Shown here one piece after another: positions 4,104 to 58,435 of a stretch of 64,000 bases of DNA. Every line of letters starts with the position of its first letter. Position 1 is the first letter of the stretch. Source of the stretch: a virus; IMG/VR virus record IMGVR_UViG_3300026512_000010, positions 1 to 64,000 of that record. The stretch is one strand, 5' to 3'. A program made the position numbers and the translations under genes. The notes under the pieces were generated by a model that saw only the letters and a list, made by a program, of their open reading frames with translations, was not told the DNA's origin and did no database searches.

Positions 4104-4143
4104 CTTATAAATAATTATATAATAATTTTTGAAAAAAGTAAAG
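4104..4143 (-). promoter_or_regulatory. Conserved phage promoter cassette with upstream aaatttaagctaaatttaag element
   Basis: cttataaataattatataataatttttgaaaaaagtaaag followed by gggtttaagctaaatttaagg. Confidence 0.5.
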
Positions 4144-4192
4144 GGTTTAAGCTAAATTTAAGGAAAATTTAAGAATAAAAGAAAGAAGAGAG

Positions 4193-7200: not shown

Positions 7201-7431
7201 TTATAAATAATTTACATAAATATTTGGAATCTCATCAAGTTTTTCTACAATTTTTAATGGAACTTGATTGATTTCAGCCACCCTTTCAGGTGTATTAAAT
7301 TTTAATTCTGATTTCATCTTTTTAATCCAATTTATTACACTTAATGTATAATCACCCTCCTTATTTTTAATTTTAGCCAACTTACAGTAAATCTTTTGTA
7401 TCTCTTTAACCATTCGTGGATTTATTTTCAT
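7201..7431 (-). CDS. Hypothetical protein
   Basis: ORF in operon. Confidence 0.35.
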   Translation of the reverse strand: MKINPRMVKEIQKIYCKLAKIKNKEGDYTLSVINWIKKMKSELKFNTPERVAEINQVPLKIVEKLDEIPNIYVNYL

Positions 7432-7940
7432 TTTATTTCCTTAATTTGTCTCACATTAATACCACATTCTCTTAGAAAATCAATACCATCTAAATTTTTA
7501 TATTTCTCTTTATAAAATACTCTTTTTATACCCGATTGAGCTATTAATTTTGAACAGTCTGGACAAGGACTTAATGTAACATATAAATCACAGCCATCTG
7601 TAGAAATTCCAGCCTTTGCAGCAAAAGCTATTGCATTCATCTCTGCATGAACAGTGAATGGTGATGTAACCAACACTTTTTTAAGTTTTGGATGTATTTT
7701 TCCACAAGTATTACAATAAAAATTTACATCATCGCATTTTCCTACATCTTTTGAGTTACAATATGGACAAACTTCTATTTCATCTTCACAAACATTTTTA
7801 TGTCCTGAAACTGTCCCGTTATATCCACAGGAAATAATCCTATTATCCTTAACGAGAACTGCCCCCACCTGTCTTCTTTTGCAATAAGATAAGTTTGCAG
7901 TTTCTTGAGCTACATTCATAAAATAATATTCTTTTATCAT
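7428..7940 (-). CDS. cd: dCMP deaminase (T4 Cd-like) with inserted Cys4 zinc-ribbon
   Basis: HAEMNAI...LSPCPDCSKLI zinc-binding deaminase motifs. Start moved to the MIKEYYF Met (ATG 7938-7940), which has GGAG 6 nt upstream and removes the 47-nt overlap with the upstream ORF. Confidence 0.8.
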   Translation of the reverse strand: MIKEYYFMNVAQETANLSYCKRRQVGAVLVKDNRIISCGYNGTVSGHKNVCEDEIEVCPYCNSKDVGKCDDVNFYCNTCGKIHPKLKKVLVTSPFTVHAEMNAIAFAAKAGISTDGCDLYVTLSPCPDCSKLIAQSGIKRVFYKEKYKNLDGIDFLRECGINVRQIKEIK

Positions 7941-7941
7941 T

Positions 7942-8169
7942 TTAAACTCCATATCTATTTGCAAATTTAGCAAGTTTTTTAAGAGCACTTTGTTCTAATG
8001 CTCTTATACCTTGTTTTGTTATCCCCATAAGATATCCTATCTCTTCAAGTGTATATTCTCTACTTTCTAAAACACCAGCATCAATTAGTTCATTTAATGC
8101 ATGCCATTTATCTTTTCTGTTTTCAAATTCATCCAAGATAATTTTCGCTTCTTTTAATGTCATTGTCAT
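7942..8169 (-). CDS. Small sigma-70 region 4.2-like HTH protein (75 aa)
   Basis: YTLEEIGYLMGITKQGIRALEQSALKKL parallels E. coli sigma70 [28 protein letters not shown]; preceded by a consensus promoter plus upstream element. Confidence 0.55.
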   Translation of the reverse strand: MTMTLKEAKIILDEFENRKDKWHALNELIDAGVLESREYTLEEIGYLMGITKQGIRALEQSALKKLAKFANRYGV

Positions 8170-8192
8170 TTTAACTCCTTAACTTTTCTTTT

Positions 8193-8227
8193 AAGTAATT
8201 ATAATATAATTTTTTGTAAAAGTAAAG
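8193..8227 (-). promoter_or_regulatory. Conserved phage promoter cassette with upstream aaatttaagctaaatttaag element
   Basis: aagtaattataatataattttttgtaaaagtaaag then ggtttaagctaaatttaagg. Confidence 0.5.
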
Positions 8228-8247
8228 GGTTTAAGCTAAATTTAAGG

Positions 8248-8976
8248 TTAAAAATCCCAATCTGATAATTTTGTTCCCTGGAATTTCTTAAAATGCTTAT
8301 TATTTTTAGAATATTCTAAAAACTCTTCAGCAAGTTCATTTAATTCTAAAAATTTTAAATAATCATACCCCAAAGAAGTAATATCCGCATTAAAAGGAAG
8401 TTTCTTTGCATATCCTTCAAATTCTTCAAGTTCTCTTTTTATTTTATCATAAAATCCTAAAATTGCTCCTTCTTTTTCAAAAGCAGTTGTTCCCTTAGGA
8501 GGCTTACCACTTCTTTCAACAATTCTATCGATATATTTGTCAAAATTTTCTTTCCCATAATAATATATTTGATAGAAAAATTTTTTACATCCATTTGAAG
8601 ACATATGTTTAGGACGGACTCTAAATGTATCCATATTTGAATACCCTTCCCCTATTACATTTTTAATTTTAAGATGTTTTATATAATCTACTGTTGGCTC
8701 TGTCCCTCCAAATTTACTCCATAATGAGTCAAAACTTGCCCATGATACATATCCTGCTTTTTTATTATTTGTATATTTTCCTAAAAACAATAAATCTAAA
8801 TCTTTGAAATAAATTCCTAAGTCAAAAATTTTATCGTTATATGTGGTTTTATACACTTCAGAACGATATTTAGTTTCTAAAAATTTTATTAATTGATTCA
8901 TTCTTGTCCCTTTACCGGAACCAGAGGATCCCAATACTAATCCAAAAGTTTCCACTACCACTCCTTTAGAGAACAA
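8248..8976 (-). CDS. P-loop kinase-like protein (paralog of the C-domain of 11796..13415); candidate nucleotide/DNA-base kinase
   Basis: Walker A VLGSSGSGKGTRMNQLIKFLETKY resembles VLGSNATGKSTRITRLIEYLDKEY in the 539-aa protein. Confidence 0.45.
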   Translation of the reverse strand: MFSKGVVVETFGLVLGSSGSGKGTRMNQLIKFLETKYRSEVYKTTYNDKIFDLGIYFKDLDLLFLGKYTNNKKAGYVSWASFDSLWSKFGGTEPTVDYIKHLKIKNVIGEGYSNMDTFRVRPKHMSSNGCKKFFYQIYYYGKENFDKYIDRIVERSGKPPKGTTAFEKEGAILGFYDKIKRELEEFEGYAKKLPFNADITSLGYDYLKFLELNELAEEFLEYSKNNKHFKKFQGTKLSDWDF

Positions 8977-10094
8977 GCATTAATTTTAGAATAGTCATAT
9001 TTTGCACGAGGGCGTCCCATTTCTTTTTTAGCTTTTGTATATTTGCTTAATTCACAAAAGCTATTTTCAAGCATCATAACATTGAGACACCTATCGTATT
9101 CAGGAAGATGGTCAAAAAGTTTATTCAAATCCGTTTCCCATCCTCTTTTCTTCCATTCTTTTTCTATATAATCTCTTACCCAAAATATACACTCTTCATA
9201 TGTCATTCCATCTTTATCTTTAAACATATAATCAATACCCCCTTGACAACCTGGCCCAGCAACAGTAAATTCATTTTCACTAAATTTGAATTCTTCTATA
9301 TAAGTAAAATCTACAAAAACCTGATAAGCAAGAAATTCACTAAATCCGGGTATTAGAAGCAGTTTTTCATATGCGTCTTTTTGAGAAGAAGCTTCATTAA
9401 CAAGATTAGCAATATTTAAATCATCTCTTGCAAATTTGACAAGCCACAGCATTCTTACAACCATATTTGGCTCAAACTCTGAAATTTTTTCGGAGTCTTT
9501 AATCTTATCAAATGCTTCTCTTACAGTCATTTCTTTTCCATTGTGTTTAACTAAATTTTTAACAGTCTTACCATCCTTATATTCATATATTTTTGGAAAT
9601 CTCCAAGTATGTTTTATGCCACCCATGTTAAATGCTGAAGTATACCAAACATATTTAGGATTAGCTTTGGAAAACTCTTCAACTACATTTCTAATTTTGT
9701 CTATATCTTTTTCATTAAAAGTTAAAATATTAAACTCTTCAGGAAAATTTAAAATTCTAAATGTCTCTGATTTGTTCCAAGCTCTAAATAAAATACTCCA
9801 AAGGATTTTTTCTTCAAAAGAAAGATTTTCGTTTTTGCTAATGTTTCTTATAAGCCACTTGCTTTCTCTATCAAGTTCTCTTCTAACATTTGTGAATTTA
9901 TATTTTTGAAAAATTTCATCTTCCGTCCAAGATGGCGGAAGTTTTTCTATTTCTTTTTTCTTATATATTTTGTGCCTTTCAAAAATATAATTGTGATGAT
10001 ATTTTAAAATATCTTCATTAAAAGTAGGACTTGCTTTTTTTATAACCTCTTTTCTAACTCCACAATATGGGACATCAGCTGGTTTTGTTTTCAT
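8955..10094 (-). CDS. Hypothetical 379-aa protein (modification-cluster member)
   Basis: Large ORF between the P-loop kinase and the dNMP kinase; no motif recognised. Confidence 0.4.
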   Translation of the reverse strand: MKTKPADVPYCGVRKEVIKKASPTFNEDILKYHHNYIFERHKIYKKKEIEKLPPSWTEDEIFQKYKFTNVRRELDRESKWLIRNISKNENLSFEEKILWSILFRAWNKSETFRILNFPEEFNILTFNEKDIDKIRNVVEEFSKANPKYVWYTSAFNMGGIKHTWRFPKIYEYKDGKTVKNLVKHNGKEMTVREAFDKIKDSEKISEFEPNMVVRMLWLVKFARDDLNIANLVNEASSQKDAYEKLLLIPGFSEFLAYQVFVDFTYIEEFKFSENEFTVAGPGCQGGIDYMFKDKDGMTYEECIFWVRDYIEKEWKKRGWETDLNKLFDHLPEYDRCLNVMMLENSFCELSKYTKAKKEMGRPRAKYDYSKINACSLKEW

Positions 10095-10656
10095 CTAAAA
10101 TTCCCTTTATAAACTTTCTTATTTTTTCCTTTCCAGAAAAATCATTATGAAATATATAATCAACATCAAAGGTATCTATCGTATCTTCAAAGGAATGTTT
10201 TTTATGAATAGATTTATCAGAAATAATTTTTATAATTTTAAATCCATTGTTTTTAACATATTCATATTCAATAGGCGTTCTTAAATCAGAAATAAAAATT
10301 TCTTTTTTATTAGGAAGGGAACCAAATTCAAATTCTTTTTGAATTTCTTTTTGATATTTTTCTATTTCATCATTTAACATTCTAACAAAAATTCCATCTT
10401 CTATATCTCTTAAAAAATTTAATTTTAACCAGACTTCTCTTGGAACAATTTCTATTTTTTCTCCTATAGAAGTTTCATAAGTAAATTTTTGTTCTTTTTC
10501 TTCAGGTAAATAATCTTTTTTCATCCATGGATAAATGCAGTTAGCAAGTTTTTTAAGCTGGTCACTAAAAGAGAAACGCTTATAATTGAACTCTTTTAGA
10601 ACTTCTCCAAAATAATCTTTACCGCTTCCTGCTCTACCAGTTAATGCTATTTTCAT
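10075..10656 (-). CDS. Deoxynucleoside monophosphate kinase (T4 gp1-like)
   Basis: MKIALTGRAGSGKDYFGEVLKEF parallels T4 gp1 MKLIFLSGVKRSGKDTTADFIMSNY. Confidence 0.7.
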   Translation of the reverse strand: MKIALTGRAGSGKDYFGEVLKEFNYKRFSFSDQLKKLANCIYPWMKKDYLPEEKEQKFTYETSIGEKIEIVPREVWLKLNFLRDIEDGIFVRMLNDEIEKYQKEIQKEFEFGSLPNKKEIFISDLRTPIEYEYVKNNGFKIIKIISDKSIHKKHSFEDTIDTFDVDYIFHNDFSGKEKIRKFIKGILDENKTS

Positions 10657-10658
10657 AT

Positions 10659-11756
10659 TTATACCTTAATTTGAAATTTTCTAAATGGTGAATATTCAAT
10701 ACTCCATTTAACTTCTTCTGGAAGCATACTAATGTCAATCATAATATCTTCAGCAATTTCGCCTTTTTTAAGCCCTCTATTTTTAGTAATAATAAATGCA
10801 GTCACAAGTTCAATATATTTTTGAAGTAATATATCTTTTACATCCCAGTTTTCAATTAAAAAATCATTAATCTCCTGTCCTGCTTTATAATCTGTTTCTT
10901 TATTGACAATTAGTTTACTTTGCATTCTAACGATATTATCATGAAAATCTCTAAATTCTTGAGAACTTTTTACAGGAAATATAATACTGTGTCTATTTTC
11001 CAAATTTAATTTTTGTTTATCTCTATTTTTTAAAACATCATAACCCTGTTGTCCTGTAAAATCATAAAGGTGCATATTAGTGCAAAAATGTGTATATTCA
11101 CCTAATTTTACTTCTGAATCAATATTCTCCCTAAGCCAATGTGTAACAAATTCTTGTAAATAAGTGAATTCGAAAATATTAATAGAACCAAGCCCCCAAA
11201 TTATATCTCCACTTCTACTAAACATATTAAGATTTAATCTTTTTTCATTGTCCACAAAAATATTTATAAGTTGGTTGCAAGGTTGATCTTTTGTGCTTTC
11301 TAAGTGATACACATACTCTAAGCTCATGTCAGTATCTAAATCAGGATTACCAATATATAAATTTGCTCTTCTTGTAAATAAACTATCTTTTTTAAATTTG
11401 TTTAACATACTTTCCATCTGGCCAAATCTATAAAATCTTTCGCCATATCCTCCTCTCCATGTTTCCCCATCATCAGAAAAATCTCTTGCACGAGGAAGAA
11501 AATGAATGAGATACGGATCTATTAATATAGAACCACTCATTACCCAAAAGGTTTCAGCTATCATAGCAAATATATTATTTTTTCTACCCTCTAATGCTAA
11601 GTGTCTTGCTCTTGGATTTTTCTGAGAAAGAACAGCATTATAAATGACATTTATATTGCCATTTCTTGATGGTGTTCTTGCCCCCTTATTAATCAAATTA
11701 TCAATTGCATTAAATACTACTTCATTTATTGTTTCACCTTTTATTTCATGAATCAT
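10659..11756 (-). CDS. Thymidylate synthase-family pyrimidine hydroxymethylase (365 aa; dUMP or dCMP hydroxymethylase-like)
   Basis: ThyA-family core DQPCNQLINIFVDNEKRLNLNMFSRSGDIIWGLGSINIFEFTYLQEFV (catalytic Cys, RS.D..LG.P.NI); about 100 aa longer than ThyA or T4 gp42. Confidence 0.65.
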   Translation of the reverse strand: MIHEIKGETINEVVFNAIDNLINKGARTPSRNGNINVIYNAVLSQKNPRARHLALEGRKNNIFAMIAETFWVMSGSILIDPYLIHFLPRARDFSDDGETWRGGYGERFYRFGQMESMLNKFKKDSLFTRRANLYIGNPDLDTDMSLEYVYHLESTKDQPCNQLINIFVDNEKRLNLNMFSRSGDIIWGLGSINIFEFTYLQEFVTHWLRENIDSEVKLGEYTHFCTNMHLYDFTGQQGYDVLKNRDKQKLNLENRHSIIFPVKSSQEFRDFHDNIVRMQSKLIVNKETDYKAGQEINDFLIENWDVKDILLQKYIELVTAFIITKNRGLKKGEIAEDIMIDISMLPEEVKWSIEYSPFRKFQIKV

Positions 11757-11795
11757 CTGAACTCCTATTTTTATTATAATTATAACTTATTTTTA

Positions 11796-13415
11796 TTACA
11801 AAGTAAATTGCCATTCTGACAAAATATCTACTGTTTTGTTGTTATCTTCTTTCTTTTCCACACAATCACCAAATAAAAAATTTACAAAAAAATCTTCTCT
11901 CTCAAACGGCGAAACATCATATAACTCTGTTTCTGTTTCTCCATTACATTTCATCAATTTCAATTCTTCAAGATGTTTTCTCTGCCCTAAATTATCTCTC
12001 CATCCTTGTGACTTTTCAGCCCAGTCAAGTCTCCTATTTTTCCCTGTTCTTCCATTTGTTCTCAAAAGATAGTGCTCTATATCATCATATAGAAAAAATA
12101 CTTCTATCGCTTTATCAACATTAATGTTTCTCTTTTTTAATGCTTCATATGTAAATACTTTGCCTCTATTATTGAAAAAACCTTCTTGTATAAAATAATT
12201 TATGTCATAATTTTTAAACATATGTTTTATAAAATTAAATCTACTTTCCTGTGTTGTAAAATCAGAAGTATCTAAACTTATCCACTTTTTAGAAGTATTA
12301 AATCGTCCTAAAATAAACATTTTTCCTAAAGAAGTATTATAAATTCGTCCAATTTCTACTTCTTTTTTAGCTTTCATAGAATAGTATATCACAAATGTAG
12401 GATCACCATATTCTTTGTCCAGATATTCTATTAATCGAGTTATTCTTGTTGATTTGCCTGTTGCATTAGAACCTAAAACATTTATAAATGTATGATTAAC
12501 TTCTTTTTCTACTTCTGGCTCTATAAGTTTTCTATTTTTAAATTTACCCAAAGATGTAGATCTATTTTTGTTTTTTTCTTTACTTTCATACCAGGCTTCT
12601 ATTTGTCCCTTATCATAAATAGTCTGAGGAAGTAAATAATTTGACGAATCAAACCATTCTCTAAATGGTCTAGGATTATCCTTTAAAGCTTCTAAAATGA
12701 TGTCTCTCACAAGTCTTAAAGCATCCCTTACTTCATTTATTTTATTTGTTGATCTAATGAATCTAAATTCTATAGTTCCTACATCAATTAAACTCATGGG
12801 ATTTATAAATGGCCTAGCTATTAAAGATAGTTTTTTGCCATCTTTATTTATTTTTAGTGTATCTTTTAATTCCTGAAAATTTTTAGCTCTATTTATATTT
12901 TCAATGAAAATTTCAGAAATTCTTCTTCCACCATCATTTCTCAAATAATTTTTGGCCTTTTTATAAGTCTTTTCATCAAGATTTAATTTTTTGAGTTCAT
13001 TTTCATCAAAGGGATAACAGGCTTCAATTATATCTCTATGATTTTCATTAACATAATTAATTATCCTTTTAATTATTTCTATATCTTTATCCCATTCAGC
13101 AATTCTTGTATGTATGTGAAAATGAGACATACAAGATACGCCAAAATCATATTTATAATGGCAGAATATTTTTTCAACAAGTTTTACTGTATCACATATT
13201 CCATATTTAGGAGCTGTGTTAATTTCAGCACCAACAGGAGGATTAATTCCTGCAGGATCAACAGGAACATTTTTATATGGCTCTTTTGTATTTACAATAT
13301 CAAACTCAGAATGTTCAAATTCCCCCAAATATGATGGAAGTGTTCTTTCAATATCAGGCAATTCTAATTCCAATCCAAAACTTATATCACTATCACAAAT
13401 GTCCCATTTATTCAT
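11796..13415 (-). CDS. Two-domain protein: unknown N-domain plus C-terminal P-loop kinase-like domain
   Basis: C-terminal LGSNATGKSTRITRLIEYL Walker A, paralogous to 8248..8976; N-domain of about 300 aa unassigned. Confidence 0.45.
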   Translation of the reverse strand: MNKWDICDSDISFGLELELPDIERTLPSYLGEFEHSEFDIVNTKEPYKNVPVDPAGINPPVGAEINTAPKYGICDTVKLVEKIFCHYKYDFGVSCMSHFHIHTRIAEWDKDIEIIKRIINYVNENHRDIIEACYPFDENELKKLNLDEKTYKKAKNYLRNDGGRRISEIFIENINRAKNFQELKDTLKINKDGKKLSLIARPFINPMSLIDVGTIEFRFIRSTNKINEVRDALRLVRDIILEALKDNPRPFREWFDSSNYLLPQTIYDKGQIEAWYESKEKNKNRSTSLGKFKNRKLIEPEVEKEVNHTFINVLGSNATGKSTRITRLIEYLDKEYGDPTFVIYYSMKAKKEVEIGRIYNTSLGKMFILGRFNTSKKWISLDTSDFTTQESRFNFIKHMFKNYDINYFIQEGFFNNRGKVFTYEALKKRNINVDKAIEVFFLYDDIEHYLLRTNGRTGKNRRLDWAEKSQGWRDNLGQRKHLEELKLMKCNGETETELYDVSPFEREDFFVNFLFGDCVEKKEDNNKTVDILSEWQFTL

Positions 13416-13879
13416 TATATCTCCTTATAGCATCCGCCACGCTTAGCTTGCATTTTCTTTTTTATAAAGTCATCAATTTCATCTTTATCTCCATCTTTTT
13501 TAAAAATGGCCAAATAGGTTCCTGACTTTTGTTGACATCTAAATTTTATACCAAGTTTTTCATAAAACTTTCTTGCAGTTTTTTCAGAAGAGATTCTAAT
13601 ATAGGGTGTATCAACATTTTGTAAAAAATGTTTTACTAATTTTTCTCCTATATGTTTTCCTCTGTATCTTTCATCAACAAATAATAAATCAAGAGTTGTC
13701 TGTTTTTTATCTTTTGTGGCCTTCTTTGCATAAAACCCTAAAATGTCACCATCTTTATATACAAAGAATTCATCAGGAGGTCTTGCATTTATTTTTGAAT
13801 AAAAAGTTCCAGCATACTTTTGACCATCACAGTTTTTCAAAAAATTCTGAATTTCTTCCTTTGAAACTTGTATTATCAT
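13415..13879 (-). CDS. GNAT-family N-acetyltransferase
   Basis: ERYRGKHIGEKLVKHF (motif A R-x-x-G-x-G/A) and C-terminal FYEKLGIKF. Confidence 0.55.
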   Translation of the reverse strand: MIIQVSKEEIQNFLKNCDGQKYAGTFYSKINARPPDEFFVYKDGDILGFYAKKATKDKKQTTLDLLFVDERYRGKHIGEKLVKHFLQNVDTPYIRISSEKTARKFYEKLGIKFRCQQKSGTYLAIFKKDGDKDEIDDFIKKKMQAKRGGCYKEI

Positions 13880-13892
13880 ATAATTCCTTTAA

Positions 13893-13923
13893 TAATTATA
13901 ATATGTTTTACAACAAAAGTAAA
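13893..13923 (-). promoter_or_regulatory. Conserved phage promoter cassette (variant)
   Basis: taattataatatgttttacaacaaaagtaaa. Confidence 0.4.
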
Positions 13924-14922
13924 TTAAATCTTTTCTATCTTTTCTTCATATGTAAGTTTAAATTTACTTTTATCAATACCAATTCTAAAATATTCTTTTG
14001 GAGTAGTTTCCCTGATGCCATCCCATAATAAACTCCAATCCACACCATTCCATTCAGGATGTTTTGAAACATTTTCTATGTCCTCGGCAAGTCTGTGAAT
14101 ATAATATCCAACGTATCTACTATCTCTTTCTCTAAAAGTCTTTTTATATGCACAGGCTACTGTTTCAATAGTAAAATTATCCACAGGAATATTTTCTTCT
14201 TGAAGTTTTTCAAAAATTTCTTTTTTAGTTACATCTTCAAGCCATATTTTTTCATCTTTTGTAAAATTATGAACAATTTTCTTTCTTTTTCCGTTTTCAA
14301 TTATTCTTTCTTTTTTGGACCACTCATCCTTTCCAAACGCAAAACAAAGCCCATGTGTATGACTTTCTGCATTCTTTTCTCCAAGAAATAAGGTAGTTGG
14401 CTCTATATTATATACTGCTACCTGTTTTAAAGCTTGTGCCCAGTTCCATACAGAAAACCTTCCAAAATGTTTTATAGGTTTATAGATAGTGTTCCAAAGT
14501 TTATTAAAATTCTCTTCAGGTGAACTATTTAATAAGTCATCAAAATATTCACTCTGAGATTTGCCATTTAGCATATTTTTATAACTCTCTACTGTCTCAA
14601 CAAAAAATTTTCTCTGTTTTAATTTATCTGTCTGAAAGGGAATTTTATACTGAGCCCATTCCCACCATTTTTGAAGTCTTTTTATTCCAGCTATTTCAAG
14701 ATCTGGATATTCATTTATAATAAGATACGCTGAGGGTAAATGATATGTTACAGAAGTTAAAAAGCAGAACCACAGTATCTGCTCTTTATTTAGTTCAAGT
14801 CTATCAACAATATAATTGCTTATTGTAATAAAAGGGTCAATATCATTAGCATATAACATCCTCTTATAATAATGAATAAAATCATCAACTCTACCATTCA
14901 TATTCTTCCTCTTCTGGAACAA
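13924..14922 (-). CDS. Hypothetical 332-aa protein (modification-cluster member)
   Basis: ORF; likely true start at the MNGRVDDF Met, giving a short overlap with the amidotransferase gene. Confidence 0.4.
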   Translation of the reverse strand: MFQKRKNMNGRVDDFIHYYKRMLYANDIDPFITISNYIVDRLELNKEQILWFCFLTSVTYHLPSAYLIINEYPDLEIAGIKRLQKWWEWAQYKIPFQTDKLKQRKFFVETVESYKNMLNGKSQSEYFDDLLNSSPEENFNKLWNTIYKPIKHFGRFSVWNWAQALKQVAVYNIEPTTLFLGEKNAESHTHGLCFAFGKDEWSKKERIIENGKRKKIVHNFTKDEKIWLEDVTKKEIFEKLQEENIPVDNFTIETVACAYKKTFRERDSRYVGYYIHRLAEDIENVSKHPEWNGVDWSLLWDGIRETTPKEYFRIGIDKSKFKLTYEEKIEKI

Positions 14923-15577
14923 AGTCCATTGTTCTATCTATTTTTTCTAAATCGTCAGGAATTACCTTTTCTATATTTTCTATTAAATTTAATTCTTTAT
15001 CTGCTCTTAAAAGAATATTTTTAGTGCTTGCTATGATATAGCCATTTTTCAATGTGGCTTTCCATTGTGGTCTTAAACCATTTCTAAAATTTATTAATTT
15101 ACCATTTGGTGCCAAAAACACAGCAGACGCAGAACATCCTGGAAATTTTTGCAAGTATGATTTGTCTCTTGTATTCTTAAACCAGTGAAACAATAGTTCT
15201 GTATCATTTTTAGTTTCGCATAATATATTATAAGAAGTTTCCCAAAGTTCAGGTGGCTCTTGAGAAATAACACCATTATGAACAATAAATCCTTCTTTTT
15301 CATTTCCAATAGGCTGAGGATAGTGAATGTCAGATGTAGAATATCTTATGTGAAAAATGGCTCTTATTGAATTATTATATATTATTTCCGATAAATCAAA
15401 TTTTTTAAGAAAAGTTCTTGGAGGAATATTTTCTTTATAAGCATTTAATTTTCCATTATAAAATGCAACTCCAGTAGCATGACGCCCTCTAATTTCCGAC
15501 TCTTCAATAACTCTTTTTATGAGTTCCAGCTCCTTAAAAGAAATAACATCTAATTTTACTCCTACAACAGCACACAT
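14891..15577 (-). CDS. Stand-alone class-II (Ntn) glutamine amidotransferase domain protein
   Basis: Starts MCAVVGV (Cys2 nucleophile); ...RGRHATGVAF...HIRYSTS...PQP...VHNGVI pattern of GATase type 2; no fused synthase domain. Confidence 0.7.
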   Translation of the reverse strand: MCAVVGVKLDVISFKELELIKRVIEESEIRGRHATGVAFYNGKLNAYKENIPPRTFLKKFDLSEIIYNNSIRAIFHIRYSTSDIHYPQPIGNEKEGFIVHNGVISQEPPELWETSYNILCETKNDTELLFHWFKNTRDKSYLQKFPGCSASAVFLAPNGKLINFRNGLRPQWKATLKNGYIIASTKNILLRADKELNLIENIEKVIPDDLEKIDRTMDFVPEEEEYEW

Positions 15578-23793: not shown

Positions 23794-24099
23794 TTACCAT
23801 CTTGGTTTCATTCCTTTAAAGAAATTATCATTATCATATTCTAACATAATAATTGGATTATCATCTAATATCACTGTGTCATAGATCTCATTAATTCTTG
23901 CTCTTGTTTCTTTTGTATTTTGCACTATCAAGCAAGTCCTTGCATTTTCTTGAAGTTTAAATCCCAAAATTATTTCTAACGCTTTTTTATCTATTTCATA
24001 TGCTTCTATTCTATAATCATTAAAATTATACAAATGATATTTAGGAGGATAATCATCAGTATTTATTTCAACAACATTGAAAGTTCTTGATATTTTCAT
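23794..24099 (-). CDS. Possible N-terminal portion of the split Nudix gene
   Basis: Ends ...YDNDNFFKGMKPRW*, repeating the FFKG that precedes the Nudix box in the next ORF. Confidence 0.35.
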   Translation of the reverse strand: MKISRTFNVVEINTDDYPPKYHLYNFNDYRIEAYEIDKKALEIILGFKLQENARTCLIVQNTKETRARINEIYDTVILDDNPIIMLEYDNDNFFKGMKPRW

Positions 24100-33320: not shown

Positions 33321-36032
33321 TTACCATTCGTTTATGTCAATTTTATTTGTTTTTTCTAATTCCCATCCAATAGCCTTTGTAATTGTTTCTAAGGGCGTTA
33401 TGATATTTTTATTCCAGCTATAATCATAATCAATATAGTTCATTAGTCCTGTATCCTCTAAAAAAGAATCATTTAAAAAAGCAACAACGTCAAATTCTGT
33501 AGGATTTGGTGTTTTTAATTTAGCAATAAATGATTTCATTCCCTCTTCTATTTCCTGATGATATTCTTCAAGATTCATTTCTTTTCTTAACTGATTATAA
33601 CATATACCGCCTTTACTATTCATAGGTGCGCCAATTCTTAATCCGTTTTCATTTATTCTATAATATCCTCTTCCATCTTTACTATAATTAAGCTTGTTAA
33701 TTTTTACCACTTCACATATTAAAGAAGGCTTTTTCTCAAAAAATCCGACTTTTGAATTTTCTATAAACTCTTGAAGCTCTTTCTGATTTCCATTTAGAAT
33801 AATATATAATGCTTTGTTTAAAATTTCAATAGCATAATCTGGTGTTTGAGATTTTGCTACTTCTAATCCTGTTGTTTTAATTTTTGGTTTTTCTACAAAA
33901 TAACTTCCTTCATCATAAAGTGTTAAAAGAGCATACCTTTTCTTAGCAGTCCAAAATCCTTTAAGAGCAATTTTTTCAACTTTTGCTCCCATAAATCCTT
34001 TTTTATAAGAATTAAATTTTTTTCTAATAAATTCTATTGTATTATCAATTATAGGTTGTATTTCTCCATTTATAAAATCAAGTATTTTATCAATAAAAGC
34101 TCTTTTGTCTTCATCTGACAAAGAAGTAAAATCATCAGTATTAAAATCTTCTTTCAACCATTTTTTTATAATAGGTGCAAGAGATAAATAACCACTATCG
34201 GTATCCGCATAAATCCAGCTATTTTGTATATTATAATTTTCTTTTAAATACTTTTCTATGTTTCGACCTGTCATTCTATTTAAAAATCTTCCCATGAAAG
34301 TTATACTTCCAGAAATATTTCTATTACTCACAACAGAATGATTATTGTCTAAAAACCCAAATTCAGAATTGATATTAACTTTCATAGCTTGTTGAATGAC
34401 ATTTTTTAATACTGCATATTCTTCAAGTGTTTTCATAAATCTTTCTTCAACGGAATATGCATATACATCATCCCAGCTTAAATCTTCTTCAATTAAATTT
34501 GAAATTTCAACAGCAGATAATTTTTTACCATTTTTATTATTTAAAATAGCTTCTGCTTTAAGCATCTTTTGTTTTTCGGTTTTTCTACCATAATAAAACT
34601 CTTCTAATATTTCAGGTAAAATTCCTTGTTCATCAATCCTAAAAAATCCCAACCCTGCAAATTCTATATTGTATTTTTTACAAACTTTTTCTATTTTATC
34701 TAAGTAATCTAAATTATTAAGAAGTTTTTCTTCATTTTCGTCATTCGCATAATCAATTATTTCTTTTGCCTCTTGAGGAAGTTTATGATAAGGTATGTAT
34801 GTATCAGGGCTTAAATTAAATGCAACTTGAATAGATGGATATAGTGAGTTGTAATCATATGAGAATAACCATTCTATTAAACCAAAAATAGGATCTTTTA
34901 CATAACCTCCAACTATTGGTCTGTGATCTGAAGATTCTGGCTCTGATGGTAAGACCTTTTTCTTCTCTATAGCAAGATGTGTTAATAAATCTGTCCATGG
35001 AGCAACAGTTCCGAAAACATTGTCATAATTTGTTCCCATCATTTCAGCTACTGTCTGAATAAGTTTTAAAAGACCAACTGTCTTGTCAATATCTCTCAAT
35101 AAGACAATATCCATTACAGCATAATCTGTAAACTTTTCATAATTATTGACAAAAAACATTCTAATTGATTTATCCTCACCATAATCAACTTTACCCTTAT
35201 CCTCTCCTAAAAATACCTTAGCTATATGATCCAATGAATATGATTTCTGATCTTTAAAAGTAAACTTTTTGAATGCAAGCATTAAATCTATAAGATAAAT
35301 GCCTTTCCAAGTTACTTTTCTTCTTTTCTTTCCAAATTCTTCAAAATCTTTATATTTTGTTTCTCCAAGAGGTGAAAATTCATTTTTATCAATTCCTAAT
35401 ACTTCTGCTCTAATGGTTAAATATGGGAAGTCAAATGATTCAGCATTCCATCCAGTTATTATTGTAGGATTTCTCTTTTTCAATAATTTTATAAACTTTT
35501 CAAACATTTCTTCTTCTGAATTAGCAACAATGAATTTCAAATCTTTAAGATCATTTTTGTATTTTTCTTTAAGTTCTTGTTTTTTCTTTTCTGAAATATC
35601 TTTCCACATAAAAATTATTCCAGCATTTATTTTATTATCAAGTATCTGAATATGAGTAACAGGTATCTGCCCAGAAAATGTATCAGGAAACTCAGATTTA
35701 TTTGGATCAATAGCTTCTATATCAAGATACCATACATTTATATCCGAATGAGCACTCTGCTTCCAGGCTTCATGCCAAAGTATAATTTGAGGTTTTAAAG
35801 TATTAAAATTCTTTTTAGATAGTTCGCAGTATTGTTTTTCTTCTTTTATTAGAGTAGAATTTCCTGTAAGCATTTTATATTTTATATCAGGATTTGTAAG
35901 ATGTTCCCAGCCACCGTTTTCATCTTGAACAAATAAAACTTTTTTCATATTTTGTTTATCAAAAATCGATACTCCGTTCACATTTTTTCTAAGATATGTG
36001 TCCCATTTTTTAGTAAAAACTCCTTCAACCAT
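33321..36032 (-). CDS. Family B DNA polymerase (T4 gp43-like)
   Basis: Exo I YLDIEA; pol motifs DYNSLYPS, KVNINSEFG, IYADTDSGY. Confidence 0.9.
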   Translation of the reverse strand: MVEGVFTKKWDTYLRKNVNGVSIFDKQNMKKVLFVQDENGGWEHLTNPDIKYKMLTGNSTLIKEEKQYCELSKKNFNTLKPQIILWHEAWKQSAHSDINVWYLDIEAIDPNKSEFPDTFSGQIPVTHIQILDNKINAGIIFMWKDISEKKKQELKEKYKNDLKDLKFIVANSEEEMFEKFIKLLKKRNPTIITGWNAESFDFPYLTIRAEVLGIDKNEFSPLGETKYKDFEEFGKKRRKVTWKGIYLIDLMLAFKKFTFKDQKSYSLDHIAKVFLGEDKGKVDYGEDKSIRMFFVNNYEKFTDYAVMDIVLLRDIDKTVGLLKLIQTVAEMMGTNYDNVFGTVAPWTDLLTHLAIEKKKVLPSEPESSDHRPIVGGYVKDPIFGLIEWLFSYDYNSLYPSIQVAFNLSPDTYIPYHKLPQEAKEIIDYANDENEEKLLNNLDYLDKIEKVCKKYNIEFAGLGFFRIDEQGILPEILEEFYYGRKTEKQKMLKAEAILNNKNGKKLSAVEISNLIEEDLSWDDVYAYSVEERFMKTLEEYAVLKNVIQQAMKVNINSEFGFLDNNHSVVSNRNISGSITFMGRFLNRMTGRNIEKYLKENYNIQNSWIYADTDSGYLSLAPIIKKWLKEDFNTDDFTSLSDEDKRAFIDKILDFINGEIQPIIDNTIEFIRKKFNSYKKGFMGAKVEKIALKGFWTAKKRYALLTLYDEGSYFVEKPKIKTTGLEVAKSQTPDYAIEILNKALYIILNGNQKELQEFIENSKVGFFEKKPSLICEVVKINKLNYSKDGRGYYRINENGLRIGAPMNSKGGICYNQLRKEMNLEEYHQEIEEGMKSFIAKLKTPNPTEFDVVAFLNDSFLEDTGLMNYIDYDYSWNKNIITPLETITKAIGWELEKTNKIDINEW

Positions 36033-40722: not shown

Positions 40723-41127
40723 TTATTTGTTATTTCTACCTTTTGTATTTTCATAAATATTGCCAACAATTTCTAGATTTCCATTTATTAGATAATCAAT
40801 CCCAAAATCAGAATCTAACTCAACCGCTTTAAATTGACATTTATCATCAATCCATTTTATAATATATAATGCAGGATCCTGTTTATATTTCACAATATCC
40901 CCCTCAAAAATTTCTTTACCATTTTTGTCTTTGAAACCAGTATATTCAATTAAAAATGCTTCTCTTTTTCCATTTACTGTAAATTGAACAGGATAAGTGT
41001 CTTTTCCATTAAATCTCCAGACAGTGGCAGCTATGAGCTCCCCTGTAACATTGTCAAACTCTAAATTTTGAACATTAACCATTTGTTTTTCGATATCATC
41101 CCATATTTTATATTTAACTTTTTTCAT
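40723..41127 (-). CDS. YopX-like protein (paralog)
   Basis: DKNGKEIFEGDIVKY. Confidence 0.4.
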   Translation of the reverse strand: MKKVKYKIWDDIEKQMVNVQNLEFDNVTGELIAATVWRFNGKDTYPVQFTVNGKREAFLIEYTGFKDKNGKEIFEGDIVKYKQDPALYIIKWIDDKCQFKAVELDSDFGIDYLINGNLEIVGNIYENTKGRNNK

Positions 41128-41343
41128 TTCTTTCTCCTTATCAATTTATCGTTTCCAACCAATAACTTCTTATTATAATTATTATTCTTAAATTGTTATT
41201 TATTTTCCTTTGATATAATAATTAGTTTCAAAGAAATTTATTATATCTTTTTTGAAATTGCTACTCTATTTAATCTAAATCTATTACCAACGTGATTTAC
41301 TTCATATAATGCATTTTTTGCTTATTCCACCCTCCTGCACTTG

Positions 41344-47636: not shown

Positions 47637-47876
47637 CTACCAAACTTCATCTATTTTTTTAGGACGATACATATGCCCGTCCTCAAGAAAATAAATTTCT
47701 CCATTTTTCACAAGATTATTATAAAATATTTCTTTGAAAGTTTTATCATTCTTTATTTCTTCTGCTAATTCCAATATGTCTAAATCATATTTATCAGCAT
47801 ATTCCATAATTATATCCAACATAGAATAATCATAAATATCATTTTTCTTAATAAAATTTAAAATTTCCTGAACCAT
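47637..47876 (-). CDS. Hypothetical protein
   Basis: ORF. Confidence 0.4.
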   Translation of the reverse strand: MVQEILNFIKKNDIYDYSMLDIIMEYADKYDLDILELAEEIKNDKTFKEIFYNNLVKNGEIYFLEDGHMYRPKKIDEVW

Positions 47877-51953: not shown

Positions 51954-52222
51954 CCTTTATTTAAAATATCCGCAATTTTCATAAAATCTTTCTTTTCAAT
52001 TTTAAATTTATTCCCATTATAATTTAAAATCAATTTATCGCCGATAAAAAGTATACTTCCTACATGCTGATCAAACTCTTGTATTAAAACTTCACACCCA
52101 ATATCTGAAATAGCCAATGTAAATCTTTGTTTAAGTTCCTTGTCTATTTCATCAACCATTTTTTCTATATCTTTTGATTTGCATCCGCCAATAATTCTTT
52201 CAATAATTTCTCTGATCATCAC
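51950..52222 (-). CDS. Hypothetical protein
   Basis: ORF, 4-nt overlaps with neighbours. Confidence 0.4.
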   Translation of the reverse strand: MMIREIIERIIGGCKSKDIEKMVDEIDKELKQRFTLAISDIGCEVLIQEFDQHVGSILFIGDKLILNYNGNKFKIEKKDFMKIADILNKG

Positions 52223-52488
52223 TTTCCCTTACAAATTTTATATAAAATATCTATGATTTCTTTTCTTCTTTTTTCTCCCCAGTCTTTACATTTATCACCG
52301 CATCTATTATAGAAAAAATTAACTCTCTCAACAGCTTGTTTTAAATCTTTTGACGCTTTACAAACTATCTCTGCTGTTTTTTGGGCAGGCATATCTTTAG
52401 CAAAGGTTCCTTCAGGAGGAGTCCATTTAGGTTTAACGTTATTTACCCATTGTTCTTCTTGTATTTTTTGAAGTATTTCTCTAATCAT
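52219..52488 (-). CDS. Hypothetical protein
   Basis: ORF. Confidence 0.4.
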   Translation of the reverse strand: MIREILQKIQEEQWVNNVKPKWTPPEGTFAKDMPAQKTAEIVCKASKDLKQAVERVNFFYNRCGDKCKDWGEKRRKEIIDILYKICKGK

Positions 52489-52489: not shown

Positions 52490-52957
52490 TTAATCTTTTA
52501 ATTTGCTTAAATCAAAGAAAGAATGTGTGAATATAGGTATTTTTCCTAAACCAGTTTTTTCATCAAGCTGAAAGCCAATAATAGTTCCAGTTTTTCTATC
52601 AAGTAGCACAAAAAATTCTTTTCCATTCTTTTCCATCGTTGACCAAAGGGGATTTTTATCTTTTATATCTTTTACATTTTTAATTAGCTCTTCAACTTCG
52701 CTTCTTGTCACCAAATCAAAAACATTTAAACCTTCATTTTTATTTTCTTTAATTTGTTTTAAAAATTCTTTAATCATATTTTCCTCCACTTTTTCTATAT
52801 CTTTAATTTTAAATTCATATTCTTTACCATCTTTATCTGAAGCCCAAATAGTATCACCGTCAATCTCTTCAACATGATACCACTCTCCATCAACCAAAAT
52901 CATACTTCCAACTTTTATATCATTCTTTTTAATTGATTCAATGAATTCTTTAATCAC
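52490..52957 (-). CDS. Hypothetical protein
   Basis: ORF. Confidence 0.4.
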   Translation of the reverse strand: MIKEFIESIKKNDIKVGSMILVDGEWYHVEEIDGDTIWASDKDGKEYEFKIKDIEKVEENMIKEFLKQIKENKNEGLNVFDLVTRSEVEELIKNVKDIKDKNPLWSTMEKNGKEFFVLLDRKTGTIIGFQLDEKTGLGKIPIFTHSFFDLSKLKD

Positions 52958-53717
52958 AAAATTCCTTTCTTTTCAATTTTATTATAATTTTCATATTTTT
53001 AATTACTCGTTTATAATATTTAATGTTATTATATCCGCCATTATACCTGCTTATAGATTTAAACCATGGATTTTTAAATCCTTTTTTTATAGCGTTTTCA
53101 TAATTATATATAAGATAAAATGTTGTTATTTTAATATTAAATCTCAAATCACTTAAAAGGATTTGAGCTAATTGTAAATCTTTATAATAATATTTTTTAT
53201 AAGGATTAAATTTTATTTTATTATATTTTAACTCTTTATTTACCCATTTTAATACTTTTCTATTTCTACTTTGATTTCCTATATTTTTTAACATTCTATT
53301 TTGATATTTCTTTTTCAAATAAGAAAAATATTGAATATTTTGTAAATATTTGCTATATTTTTTAAAAGCAAATTTATCTTTATGTAAAAAATAGTGATAT
53401 TTCTTAAATTGTTTAGGATACTTTGAAATAATAATTATTGCTGTTTCAAGTTTAACTTGTCCAACACCTAAGGATTTTAATATAAATGGCTTTTCTTTAC
53501 CATTTAGATAATTATCCCCTACAAGTTGCTTTCCTGCTGAACTTTCCGTTAAAATTATTGAACATACAGTATCGTTAAAAACATGTCCATCTATAGCTTT
53601 ATACTTTGATGAAACATTATAAGCTGTTTTTAAAACATTTAATTGAATTTCATCAAGTGCTTTTAAATTACTAAATAAACTTCCCAAAAATACTAAAATA
53701 AAAATTAAATTTTTCAT
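52950..53717 (-). CDS. Secreted lytic transglycosylase-like protein
   Basis: Signal peptide MKNLIFILVFLGSLFSNLKA; ILTESSAGKQLVGDNY...SLGVGQVK resembles the SLT-domain catalytic region. Confidence 0.4.
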   Translation of the reverse strand: MKNLIFILVFLGSLFSNLKALDEIQLNVLKTAYNVSSKYKAIDGHVFNDTVCSIILTESSAGKQLVGDNYLNGKEKPFILKSLGVGQVKLETAIIIISKYPKQFKKYHYFLHKDKFAFKKYSKYLQNIQYFSYLKKKYQNRMLKNIGNQSRNRKVLKWVNKELKYNKIKFNPYKKYYYKDLQLAQILLSDLRFNIKITTFYLIYNYENAIKKGFKNPWFKSISRYNGGYNNIKYYKRVIKNMKIIIKLKRKEFCD

Positions 53718-53736: not shown

Positions 53737-53943
53737 TTACTTTACGAAACTCAACTTTTTGAACTTTGCAAAATAATCGTGAGTTTTATGTTTTAATTTC
53801 CGTGTATATTTCTTTTTATTTTTAACTTTTCTTGTAGAAAGATTAATTTCTCTACTTATATGTTTTTGTATATTCATATCTCTATGTATATATTTTTGCT
53901 GTTCAAGTTCTTTTTTAATTTGATTAAGAGTTTTCTTTTTCAT
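53737..53943 (-). CDS. Very basic small protein (K/R-rich, possible nucleic-acid binding)
   Basis: 68 aa, about one-third Lys/Arg; follows promoter 53956-53985. Confidence 0.4.
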   Translation of the reverse strand: MKKKTLNQIKKELEQQKYIHRDMNIQKHISREINLSTRKVKNKKKYTRKLKHKTHDYFAKFKKLSFVK

Positions 53944-56680: not shown

Positions 56681-57906
56681 TTAAAATCCTCCAGTGATTT
56701 TTCTCTAAATTTTATATTATTTAAGATATATTCTAAAAGGGATTCTCTTAAACCATAATTTTTATAATACGCATCTATTTTAGACAACCATTTTTCATAG
56801 TCTGATTTTAAAAATGAAATTTGTTTCAATAAATAATTAACTGCTCCAATTTTTATTTTATAATCAAGTTCAGGATTATCTCTTTCTAATTCCTGAGCAA
56901 TATTTTTTCCATTTTTATTATCCCACAGTAAATCCAAAAATCTTCCAAAAGCCATTTTAATCTGTTTCTTATCTAAATACTTATTTATTAATTCCACAAG
57001 CCCTACAAAAGACCAAAATTTATTTTTTTCATCATTTGTAGGTTTAATACCAAATATCATTTCAAATATTTCATCTATATTTGTATGATAAATGCTTTCA
57101 TCTGTTTTTAATTTTCTAAAAACAAATTTTCCATCTTGTTGAACCTGTTCATCATCACAAATTAATGGTTCATACGCAACCCTTATTCCTCTTGAAACAC
57201 TAAACTTTAATAAATGATTATCAGGATTTTTAGTTTTAGAAATTTTCTTTTCCCAATTTTCACAATTTGCTGAAGATGTGACAAAAATTGCATTATTAAT
57301 ATATGAAGTTGCGTATGCTATGCTTCTTAATAAGTATTTGTGAAAAACTGCTTTGACCCCTGCCTGTAAATCTGTAAATGTTGAACTATGACTGAATTTG
57401 CTCCACTCTGAAGGAATAAATTCATTTTCTTTCTCTTCAAATGGAACAAACTCAAAATCCACTTGAGAGTATACACATTTATCTTTTTCATAACAATATT
57501 TAAACAAAGCATTAATCTGTTCACCTATGCTTGATTCAGTTGGTTTATTATTTCCTATATATGCAAAATTACCTATTTGTTTTCCTTCAATACTTTTAAG
57601 GAAATTCCATAATTTTCCTTTTAATTCTTCAGGAACCATTATATCAATATCTCCAGCAGAAGGCTTTAAATCTAAAACACTTGGAGAAATATCATTTTGC
57701 ATCAAAAAACTTGTTGAACCATTGAAAACATAACTATTATCTATTATCTTTTTAGTTTTCCAAATATGCTCTTTATTTTGCTTAAAAAATGAATTATCTA
57801 ATTCATAAAACAATTTTTTAAAATCGTTTTGAAATTTTTTTATACCTATTTCTTTTACAGGTATCTTTTGTGCTTTGAATCCCTTTACTTGGACATTACC
57901 ACCCAT
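56677..57906 (-). CDS. Pol-beta-superfamily nucleotidyltransferase of unknown specificity
   Basis: FNGSTSFLMQNDISPSVLDLKPSAGDIDIMV matches the hG[GS]-x(9-13)-Dh[DE]h minimal NTase signature. Confidence 0.45.
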   Translation of the reverse strand: MGGNVQVKGFKAQKIPVKEIGIKKFQNDFKKLFYELDNSFFKQNKEHIWKTKKIIDNSYVFNGSTSFLMQNDISPSVLDLKPSAGDIDIMVPEELKGKLWNFLKSIEGKQIGNFAYIGNNKPTESSIGEQINALFKYCYEKDKCVYSQVDFEFVPFEEKENEFIPSEWSKFSHSSTFTDLQAGVKAVFHKYLLRSIAYATSYINNAIFVTSSANCENWEKKISKTKNPDNHLLKFSVSRGIRVAYEPLICDDEQVQQDGKFVFRKLKTDESIYHTNIDEIFEMIFGIKPTNDEKNKFWSFVGLVELINKYLDKKQIKMAFGRFLDLLWDNKNGKNIAQELERDNPELDYKIKIGAVNYLLKQISFLKSDYEKWLSKIDAYYKNYGLRESLLEYILNNIKFREKSLEDFK

Positions 57907-58435
57907 ATTTTTCCTTATATTTCTTTAGTAAAAATTTTATTCTTTGTTTGTTTGGTTGAAATTTAATACTTCTAAATGTTTTCCAATAATCGTCTGACTC
58001 ATATAATTCCAGTAATATTTTTTCATCTTTTCTCAAATCAGTATAATAAATAGGTTTTGAGTGCATCTGAATTGTTGAGATTTCTACAACCTTAGTAACT
58101 GAATTATAAACATTATAATTGTTAGATATTAAAGGATATAATTCTTTCTGATATTTTTCTACGAATCCCAAAACAGCTTTGAAATATTCTTCAGCAATTT
58201 CCAATGGAACTTCTTTAGTATCATGTGTTTTCAAATGCAGTAACACAGCAGGTTTCCAAAAGCCATTAAATTCATCATAATCTTTTTCGTTACTCTTCAC
58301 TCCAATATCAATCATAATATTTTTATACTCTGGTAATCCATATCTTGACGCCTTTATAATAAATGGATTTTCTTTAGGAAAATCCAACTCAATAAACCCT
58401 TTATTATTTAAGACCTCATTTAAAACAATTTCCAC
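57896..58435 (-). CDS. Hypothetical protein
   Basis: ORF. Confidence 0.4.
   Translation of the reverse strand: MEIVLNEVLNNKGFIELDFPKENPFIIKASRYGLPEYKNIMIDIGVKSNEKDYDEFNGFWKPAVLLHLKTHDTKEVPLEIAEEYFKAVLGFVEKYQKELYPLISNNYNVYNSVTKVVEISTIQMHSKPIYYTDLRKDEKILLELYESDDYWKTFRSIKFQPNKQRIKFLLKKYKEKYGW

Follow-up and report, generated by a model that had tools for sequence, protein, structure and literature searches.

A free-standing homologue of sigma region 4 in a distant relative of phage T4, tentatively read as a DNA-binding regulator or adaptor

The stretch of DNA analyzed here, positions 1 to 64,000 of the IMG/VR virus record IMGVR_UViG_3300026512_000010 (64,000 nucleotides; hereafter the window), carries on its minus strand a small gene for a protein of 75 amino acids (aa). 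Our results indicate that this protein is a homologue of region 4.2 of the bacterial primary sigma factors, and probably of sigma domain 4 as a whole, detached from the rest of the sigma polypeptide. We tentatively favor the reading that it serves as a sequence-specific DNA-binding regulator or adaptor built on the sigma4 fold, since its family behaves as a fast-evolving DNA-binding partner or regulator on that fold. An earlier note on this DNA had pointed to a stand-alone region 4.2 mimic and had suggested that it might be the second piece of a two-piece sigma, or a decoy competing with host sigma70. Our analysis confirms that observation and supports the interpretation in part, namely as to homology; the mechanism described below is a proposal. 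The gene, its signals and the predicted helices of its product are as follows.

7942..8169, minus strand: coding sequence of the 75-aa free-standing sigma region 4 homologue (based on homology, the AF2 model and dN/dS)
8175..8180, minus strand: its ribosome-binding site AAGGAG, 5 nt (TTAAA) from the ATG and invariant in five of five relatives
8198..8226, minus strand: its sigma-70/sigmaA-type promoter, with -35 hexamer TTTACT (8226..8221), a 17-nt spacer and -10 hexamer TATAAT (8203..8198)
8230..8246, minus strand: two CTTAAA repeats in an 11-bp register (helically phased), abutting the -35 hexamer
Residues 5-12, 18-30, 41-48 and 52-73 of the protein: helices H1, H2, H3 and H4, predicted in the AF2 model

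The homology is supported by profiles from several databases. The Pfam family Sigma70_r4 (PF04545) matches residues 37-67 of the protein (MTMTLKEAK...ALKKLAKFANRYGV) with 26.7 bits (E 4e-6), above the gathering score of 24.1. The stand-alone helix-turn-helix (HTH) family LuxR/GerE (PF00196), assignment to which would by the earlier note have refuted its reading, gives no Pfam match even at E<=10; the best matches are to sigma factors, and the assignment to genuine sigma region 4 stands. Among the NCBIfam models, RpoD, RpoS and RpoH score best, models of RpoD, RpoS, RpoH and ECF sigmas fill every place down to E 0.005, and a few non-sigma families appear only at E values of at least 0.01. The PHROG matches are to sigma factors and regulators, with weak E-values. 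When a profile of five close family members was compared with the PDB, the matches were confined to region 4 chains of primary sigmas (best E 1.4e-7), and the first non-sigma chain was an archaeal HTH_10-type regulator at E 0.3. With a profile of 15 sequences, sigma region 4 was again the best match (E 3.9e-9, group-1 sigmas leading), the alignment extended back to residue 23, i.e., into helix 2 of region 4.1, and non-sigma chains began at E 9e-5, a value four orders of magnitude above that of the best sigma match. For both family profiles, LuxR-family chains are absent among the best 60 listed PDB sequence matches at E<=1.

Direct comparison points the same way. In BLASTP against E. coli sigma70 residues 543-613, a query string checked as exact, 15 out of 35 residues (43%) are identical between G32-L66 of the protein and G564-L598 of sigma70 (E 7e-9). 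The residues T583, I587, R588, E591, A594, L595, K597 and L598 of sigma70 are identical in the two proteins, and R596 is conservatively replaced by lysine. The claim that the two are nearly superimposable in region 4.2 was thus sound as to homology and generous as to closeness, as 14 of the 28 residues quoted are identical. The AF2 model, built from the 15-sequence alignment, consists of four helices (pLDDT 92.8), of which H3-turn-H4 is the region 4.2 HTH; in structure searches the C-terminal ~40 residues alone superpose well, on sigma4 and on LuxR-type HTHs (0.8-1.7 Å). Like region 4 of the primary sigmas (E. coli sigma70 540-613; Thermus sigmaA, PDB 1KU3/1KU7/1RIO), to which it is homologous, the protein has four helices of matching lengths and carries the HTH signatures G-x4-R/D-x-(Y/H)-TLEE(V/I)G and ALxKL. 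On this sequence evidence we regard the protein as a homologue of region 4.2 and probably of the whole domain. An alternative alignment, in which LKEAKIIL would correspond to sigma70 LTAREAKVL with a 16-residue insertion, was rejected, as the profiles put helix 2 (KWHALNELIDAG) opposite the 4.1 helix with no insertion.

Unlike sigma region 4, the protein is a separate polypeptide without regions 1-3; region 2, which provides core binding and -10 recognition, is absent from its 75 aa, and it has a promoter of its own. Upstream lie this promoter and an unrelated HMUD2 kinase gene, with no coding sequence for region 2 or 3, which bears out the earlier description of it as stand-alone. All 15 aligned relatives are likewise short, at 72-98 aa.

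Four close relatives (64-84% protein identity) share the length, the N-terminus (MTMTL..), the promoter and the ribosome-binding site of the 75-aa open reading frame (ORF); in the alignment, the promoter 5' of the gene is kept in four out of five relatives. Pairwise dN/dS is 0.13-0.60. Because promoter, ribosome-binding site and N-terminus are conserved and dN/dS lies in this range, we consider the ORF to be a real, expressed gene under purifying selection. Its ribosome-binding site is strong. The promoter is one of ~32 near-identical cassettes, consisting of promoter and 5' untranslated region (5'UTR), that drive most genes of the window. By analogy, because these promoters resemble the sigma-70 consensus, the cassette-driven genes are predicted to be early, and the host primary-sigma holoenzyme would read the consensus promoter of the sigma4-like gene.

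The protein departs from a working sigma4 in several respects. In sigma70, the residues that read the -35 hexamer are R584, E585, R586, R588 and Q589. Four out of these five are replaced in the 75-aa protein (R584K, E585Q, R586G and Q589A) and R588 alone is retained; judged by sequence, the HTH scaffold is intact, but the face that reads DNA no longer matches a -35 reader. According to the T4 review by Hinton (PMC2988021), three segments of sigma70 region 4 touch the beta-flap: H1, H2 and H5, the helix at the far C-terminal end. After the equivalent of L598, the 75-aa protein has nine residues, variable among relatives, as opposed to the 15 that form H5 in sigma70, so H5 has no counterpart here. 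Region 4.1 is strongly diverged, with H1 and H2 too diverged for flap contacts to be judged. The protein also lacks the '...E-x-W' C-terminal tail of the phage DNA polymerase and several other phage proteins, which would be the best candidate for a clamp-binding epitope like those of T4 gp33 and gp55, and ends in KFANRYGV, a terminus that varies among relatives. Furthermore, T4-type late promoters have no -35 element and need no -35 reader (PMC2988020). Together with the predicted early timing of the gene and the pairing of most family members with an actin-like ATPase (below), these features leave a canonical sigma4 role, and with it a split-sigma or decoy reading, somewhat disfavored. In the recognition helix, T-K-Q-G-I-R, residues T51, K52, Q53 and I55 are invariant within the close clade, and the helix differs freely between clades; constancy within clades combined with change between them is the pattern expected of DNA binders that co-evolve with their sites.

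The wider family is small. An exhaustive profile search over 1.8 billion representatives gave a few dozen matches, including ~13 free-standing full-length relatives of 72-98 aa, and about 20 members of the sigma4-like family were found among 5.8 billion clustered proteins. Megablast with 6 kb of the window found no close phage relative, tblastn with the 75-aa protein gave two marginal sigma matches and nothing else, and scans of IMG/VR and GTDB genomes by family patterns returned no relatives; a metagenome scan by such patterns added one further short contig. In the representative library, three long proteins, P0011, P0027 and P0013 (647, 846 and 3581 aa), align with the sigma4-like profile at 3-7 separate places, suggesting that they hold tandem arrays of sigma4-type HTH modules.

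For six relatives with 30-37% identity to the protein, the contigs were inspected. For five out of the six, at seven loci (L007, L008, L009, L010, L015, L017 and L020), the homologue lies directly upstream of, or overlaps, a gene for an actin-like ATPase with ALP_N and MreB-like_C domains. An eighth locus, L016, ends 67 nt past the homologue, before the next gene can be identified, and the sixth relative, P0022, precedes a ribonucleotide reductase gene. The ATPase genes, and the tandem and iterated repeats found in the ~350-nt region upstream, lie as follows.

L007, 10215-11132: actin-like ATPase gene
L008, 7626-8546: actin-like ATPase gene
L009, 4878-5795: actin-like ATPase gene
L015, 2195-3133: actin-like ATPase gene
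L020, 3104-4036: actin-like ATPase gene
L007, 9670-9830: upstream repeats
L008, 7100-7260: upstream repeats

The ATPases are 80-95% identical among loci, and their sigma4-like partners merely 49-62%. Several of the ATPase-linked sigma4-like proteins share an aromatic-acidic C-terminal tail, ..EFYYE, which is degenerate in the clade of the window (..FANRYGV, ..FSRKF, ..GYNLY). As the contigs bearing the ATPase gene are as AT-rich as the window and share homologues of its ORFs 52950..53717, 53737..53943 and 52219..52488, they come from related phages. The pair of genes sits between homologues of near neighbors in the window, where a 155-aa ORF lies between them; because of this inserted position, the window copy is not positionally orthologous.

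The arrangement resembles the experimentally characterized AlpA-AlpC pair of the Corynebacterium prophage CGP3, early genes of which AlpA binds repeats upstream of its own promoter and, early in induction, links phage DNA to the filament (PMC4446434). As in that system, the relatives have a small gene of DNA-binding type directly upstream of, and co-transcribed with, the actin-like ATPase gene, with repeats further upstream. The likeness is one of gene order, early timing and repeat arrangement, and the copy in the window differs in having no actin-like neighbor and a dCMP deaminase gene downstream. ParR-ParM-type adaptors differ in fold, ParR being a ribbon-helix-helix protein rather than sigma4-type. 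By this analogy, the sigma4-like gene, the ATPase gene and the upstream repeats form a candidate phage DNA-positioning module with an adaptor of sigma4 fold. We found no sigma4-type partner of an actin-like ATPase described in the literature, of which our coverage was incomplete.

We propose the following mechanism. The product of the ORF would be sigma domain 4 on its own, a module of four helices in which the last two form the region 4.2 HTH. At the start of infection, the host primary-sigma holoenzyme would transcribe the gene in an operon that continues into dCMP deaminase. The protein would then work on phage DNA as a small regulator or adaptor that binds double-stranded DNA, rather than as a subunit docked on RNA polymerase, with its sigma4.2-type helix T-K-Q-G-I-R placed in the major groove and reading a sequence other than the -35 hexamer. 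In sister lineages, where it is translationally coupled to the actin-like ATPase, its probable role is to anchor phage DNA on the filament, to regulate its own operon, or both, in the manner of AlpA-AlpC. In the lineage of the window, the filament gene and the tail would be gone, and the protein would probably be kept because it binds DNA at, or regulates, transcription units of the early or middle class.

Several points weigh against the proposal that the protein is a DNA-binding regulator or adaptor. No operator was identified for the predicted DNA binding, and the CTTAAA pair at the promoter is not conserved in the relative that is 84% identical. The analogy with adaptors comes from relatives with 30-37% identity and without positional orthology, and the 64-kb window contains no actin-like gene. 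In addition, the similarity is specifically to primary sigmas, not to ordinary HTH regulators, which keeps a role related to RNA polymerase alive.

What such a role could be depends on the phage. Late transcription in T4 is the textbook case of a split sigma, made of the region-2-like gp55 and the non-homologous, flap-binding gp33. The phage of the window was called T4-like in the earlier note, and this is borne out by its family B DNA polymerase, 28% identical to those of T4-like Campylobacter phages and cyanophages, and by homologues of the gp41 helicase, UvsX, gp46/47 and the gp44 and gp62 clamp-loader subunits; RNA ligases, NrdD/NrdG, a GroES-like protein and endonuclease VII are further T4-type genes in the window. 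From these sequences we regard it as a distant, deep-branching relative of T4. Outside the tRNA cluster its GC content is 21-30%, and all genes are on one strand. It encodes a counterpart of gp55:

58493..58945, minus strand: gp55-like late sigma of 150 aa, region-2-type only, matching PHROG 234 'late sigma transcription factor' (E 1.8e-7) over residues 6-129

This is its sole match. As the earlier note stated, the gp55 homologue carries region-2-like sequence and no region 4. The 150-aa protein has no Pfam match, no PDB match to T4 gp55 and no tblastn match in 50,697 phage records, and its identification as gp55, which rests on the single PHROG profile, is reasonable. A related contig of 124 kb (ENA ERZ27262631 k141_170233) retains the C-terminal QLWEQEWFKNLK(K/R)G of this protein.

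We also looked for the other T4 components. Among the 100 minus-strand ORFs of at least 50 aa in the 64-kb window (95 scanned against PHROGs, the remaining five against Pfam only), there is no match to gp33 (phrog_254, PF16805), the sliding clamp, AsiA or MotA; these negatives cover the part of the genome held in the 64.1-kb contig, the relative reaching 124 kb. As a positive control, T4 gp33 matches PF16805 (E 5e-27) and phrog_254 (E 2e-32). The 75-aa protein matches neither. In T4, gp33 takes the place of sigma4 on the beta-flap; it has been described as a 'sigma4 mimic', and gp55 with gp33 as a 'split sigma' (PMC2988020). Both gp33 and the 75-aa protein are small proteins of T4-type phages that also have a gp55 or gp55-like protein, but they share no sequence relationship. 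T4 gp33 lacks specific DNA binding and has a C-terminal clamp-binding epitope, whereas in the 75-aa protein the HTH is intact and a tail of that kind is missing. SPO1 Gp33 was considered as an analogue and rejected, as it has an alpha+beta fold and binds beta' and the sigmaA region 4 interface.

A 79-aa ORF at 47637..47876 (minus strand) is translationally coupled to the adjoining gp46 gene and conserved in the related 124-kb contig. It ends in KKIDEVW (compare KIDINEW in the polymerase) and gives a colinear, insignificant alignment with T4 gp33 (BLASTP E 1.4); its family profile finds no gp33 in the PDB, and a role as gp33 analogue is speculative. The 183-aa ORF adjoining it (phrog_12320, no assigned function) is in the position of T4 gene 45.

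It is unlikely, in our judgment, that the protein acts as a sigma4 in trans by binding the beta-flap tip helix of the host RNA polymerase. On core enzyme carrying the gp55-like protein, it would supply domain 4, and the resulting split sigma would act in place of, or alongside, a gp33-type co-activator. If it bound the sigmaA-holoenzyme, its competition with the tethered sigma4 would turn down -35-dependent early and host promoters. The same turn-down is achieved by AsiA in T4. The homology is specifically to region 4 of group-1 sigmas, with an alignment that reaches the 4.1 helix, but region 4.1 is barely recognizable, the Pfam match covers residues 37-67 alone, and one of the three flap-contacting segments, H5, has no counterpart. 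The ~32 early promoters depend on a -35 element that is strong and conserved in all of them, so a competitor for the flap or for -35 DNA would be an effective early shut-off; however, most of the -35-reading residues are replaced and a free domain would have to outcompete the tethered one. The phage has a region-2-only gp55-like protein; gp33, AsiA and MotA are unmatched in the window; and gp33, though non-homologous, is an established example of the concept (PMC2988020). Against a late partnership of this kind, T4-type late promoters lack a -35 element, the gene is predicted to be early, the protein has no C-terminal tail like those of the polymerase or the gp55-like protein, and the window is part of a genome in which the 79-aa ORF is an alternative candidate for gp33. 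Moreover, most homologues are coupled to an actin-like ATPase, not to a sigma. B. subtilis sigmaO-RsoA, a two-subunit sigma, is a precedent for sigma functions split over two polypeptides; there, however, the small partner supplies region-2-like functions, and a link between the 75-aa protein and the gp55-like protein would be hypothetical. The specific case of a true sigma domain 4 in trans, docking on gp55-core to give a two-polypeptide sigma with homologous halves and/or displacing the tethered region 4 of the host primary sigma so that the -35-dependent early promoters of the phage are shut off, is rather unlikely; if true, it would stand as an alternative to gp33 and AsiA, the non-homologous solutions found in T4, or as an evolutionary intermediate on the way to them.

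We consider it improbable that the free domain is a decoy, titrating a sigma4-binding protein (an anti-sigma of Rsd type, a class II activator or a defense sensor) or buffering a phage anti-sigma. The surface contacted by activators and anti-sigmas, K593-L598, is largely retained (S-A-L-K-K-L versus K-A-L-R-K-L), yet the key contact residue K593 is a serine; the predicted early expression would suit a decoy, but no candidate partner was identified, and the conserved coupling to the ATPase in relatives would be left unexplained. PhyR is a known case of sigma mimicry. Within the T4 family, Srd and Srh are listed as postulated decoys of sigma70/sigmaS and of sigma32, respectively (PMC3594737, table citing Mosig 1998); like the 75-aa protein they are early proteins with similarity to pieces of sigma and a proposed decoy role at RNA polymerase, but they are unrelated to it, resemble core-binding parts of sigma rather than region 4, and their decoy role is itself unproven. 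Equally small is the chance that the protein is a centromere-type adaptor here too, linking phage DNA to a cytoskeletal or replication-organizing partner encoded outside the 64-kb window: the pairing with the ATPase in relatives and the helically phased repeats beside its own promoter would fit, but the window has no such ATPase gene, the ..EFYYE tail is degenerate and the gene has moved to a different genomic position.

Whichever reading holds, the gene is of interest. A detached, homologous sigma4 in a deep-branching T4 relative offers a direct test of whether sigma domains function in trans, and the same phage offers a test of how gp33 and AsiA arose. At the level of the family, a sigma domain that has become the small companion of a phage actin-like ATPase would constitute a new type of filament adaptor or regulator. 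Even if it is merely a small HTH regulator, the annotation is useful, as two sources mislabel some members as 'sigma subunit'. The earlier note put the arrangement forward as one not known to be described for T4-like phages; the concepts of split sigma and decoy had already been described, and what is not found described, within an incomplete coverage of the literature, is a homologous free-standing sigma4 in a T4-like phage.

The sigma4-like gene is the first of a dCMP-deaminase operon inside a cluster for thymidine hypermodification and deoxynucleoside triphosphate metabolism.

7428..7940, minus strand: dCMP deaminase (PF00383, E 2e-25), its ATG 1 nt past the stop codon of the sigma4-like gene
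7428..15577, minus strand: thymidine hypermodification cluster

The 1-nt gap indicates that the two genes are co-transcribed and tightly coupled. Their order is kept in three out of four close relatives (L002, L004 and L005), and in two of these a gene for a nucleotide or DNA kinase was recognized 5' of the sigma4-like gene. The cluster encodes dCMP deaminase, the 5-hydroxymethyldeoxyuridine (5-hmdU) DNA kinases HMUD2 and HMUDK, a dNMP kinase, a thymidylate-synthase-like enzyme, a 539-aa HMUD2 fusion, a GNAT acetyltransferase, an amino-acid:DNA transferase (ADDT) and a glutamine amidotransferase; from this gene content, the phage DNA probably carries an amino-acid-derived thymidine modification.

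The early promoter cassettes have the form TTTACTTTTTTCAAAAA(T)TATA TATAAT TATTTATAAGAAAAGTTAAGGAGTTAAAATG, with conservation that reaches well past the -35 and -10 hexamers. The promoter pattern occurs 17 times exactly on the minus strand, and 43 times with up to two mismatches, versus 12 expected. Examples, in addition to the promoter of the sigma4-like gene (8198-8226), are:

4114-4142, minus strand: early promoter cassette
25173-25201, minus strand: early promoter cassette
38563-38591, minus strand: early promoter cassette
53956-53984, minus strand: early promoter cassette

Pairs or triplets of CTTAAA like that at 8230..8246 also precede several other early promoters, mostly abutting the -35 hexamer, and occur at one further place.

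4146-4173, minus strand: CTTAAA repeats
30517-30533, minus strand: CTTAAA repeats
38595-38611, minus strand: CTTAAA repeats
42919-42935, minus strand: CTTAAA repeats
30112-30128, minus strand: CTTAAA repeats, the further occurrence

There are six exact pairs, and ten matches with up to one mismatch versus 4.3 expected. The repeats may be a protein-binding site or an UP-like element. As the operator of the 75-aa protein they were considered and set aside: they are enriched and phased, yet not conserved 5' of the gene in relatives.

The earlier note had spoken of TATAAT-containing hairpin-loop promoters, which is not what we find: the promoters are linear TTTACT-N17-TATAAT sequences, and the hairpins are structured 5'UTR elements downstream of them. 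The conserved hairpin is ~100 nt long, with stem TTATTAGAGCCTCTCT / AGAGAGGCTC.GATAAG and an AT-rich interior, and lies between an early-type promoter and the ribosome-binding site.

18222-18345, minus strand: hairpin
46759-46880, minus strand: hairpin
58946-59070, minus strand: hairpin

The three hairpin-bearing genes encode the gp55-like late sigma, the gp44 clamp-loader subunit and a PNK/RNA-ligase-like protein. RNAalifold gives 37 pairs, three with compensatory changes, and no Rfam family matches; the element may act as a cleavage site for RNase III or serve to control translation of late-switch genes. Between the early promoter and the hairpin 5' of the clamp-loader gene, at 46872-47002, a 42-nt unit is repeated 3.1 times with 97% identity. 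The T4-type late promoter TATAAATA occurs 34 times in the window versus 23 expected, a count reached by one out of 100 shuffles and thus at most marginally enriched; its positions show no link to late genes, of which the window holds few.

Six of the 100 ORFs end in tryptophan (tryptophan frequency 1.25%, binomial P 0.0017):

33321..36032: Trp-ending ORF
47637..47876: Trp-ending ORF
8955..10094: Trp-ending ORF
14891..15577: Trp-ending ORF
57896..58435: Trp-ending ORF
23794..24099: Trp-ending ORF

Their tails include KIDINEW in the DNA polymerase, SLKEW in a 5-hmdU DNA kinase and EEYEW in the glutamine amidotransferase of the modification cluster, and the gp55-like protein has QLWEQEWF near its C-terminal end. 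These may represent a shared tail that binds the sliding clamp, in which case the DNA-hypermodification enzymes would be tethered to the clamp.

Two further regions differ in base composition. A cluster of 19 tRNA genes at 27752-30218 (minus strand) has its own early-type promoters and a local GC content of up to 43%. In the region 40723..41343, the 216-nt intergenic gap 5' of 40723..41127 is unusually long and relatively GC-rich, lacks the standard cassette and has no Rfam match at the gathering threshold.

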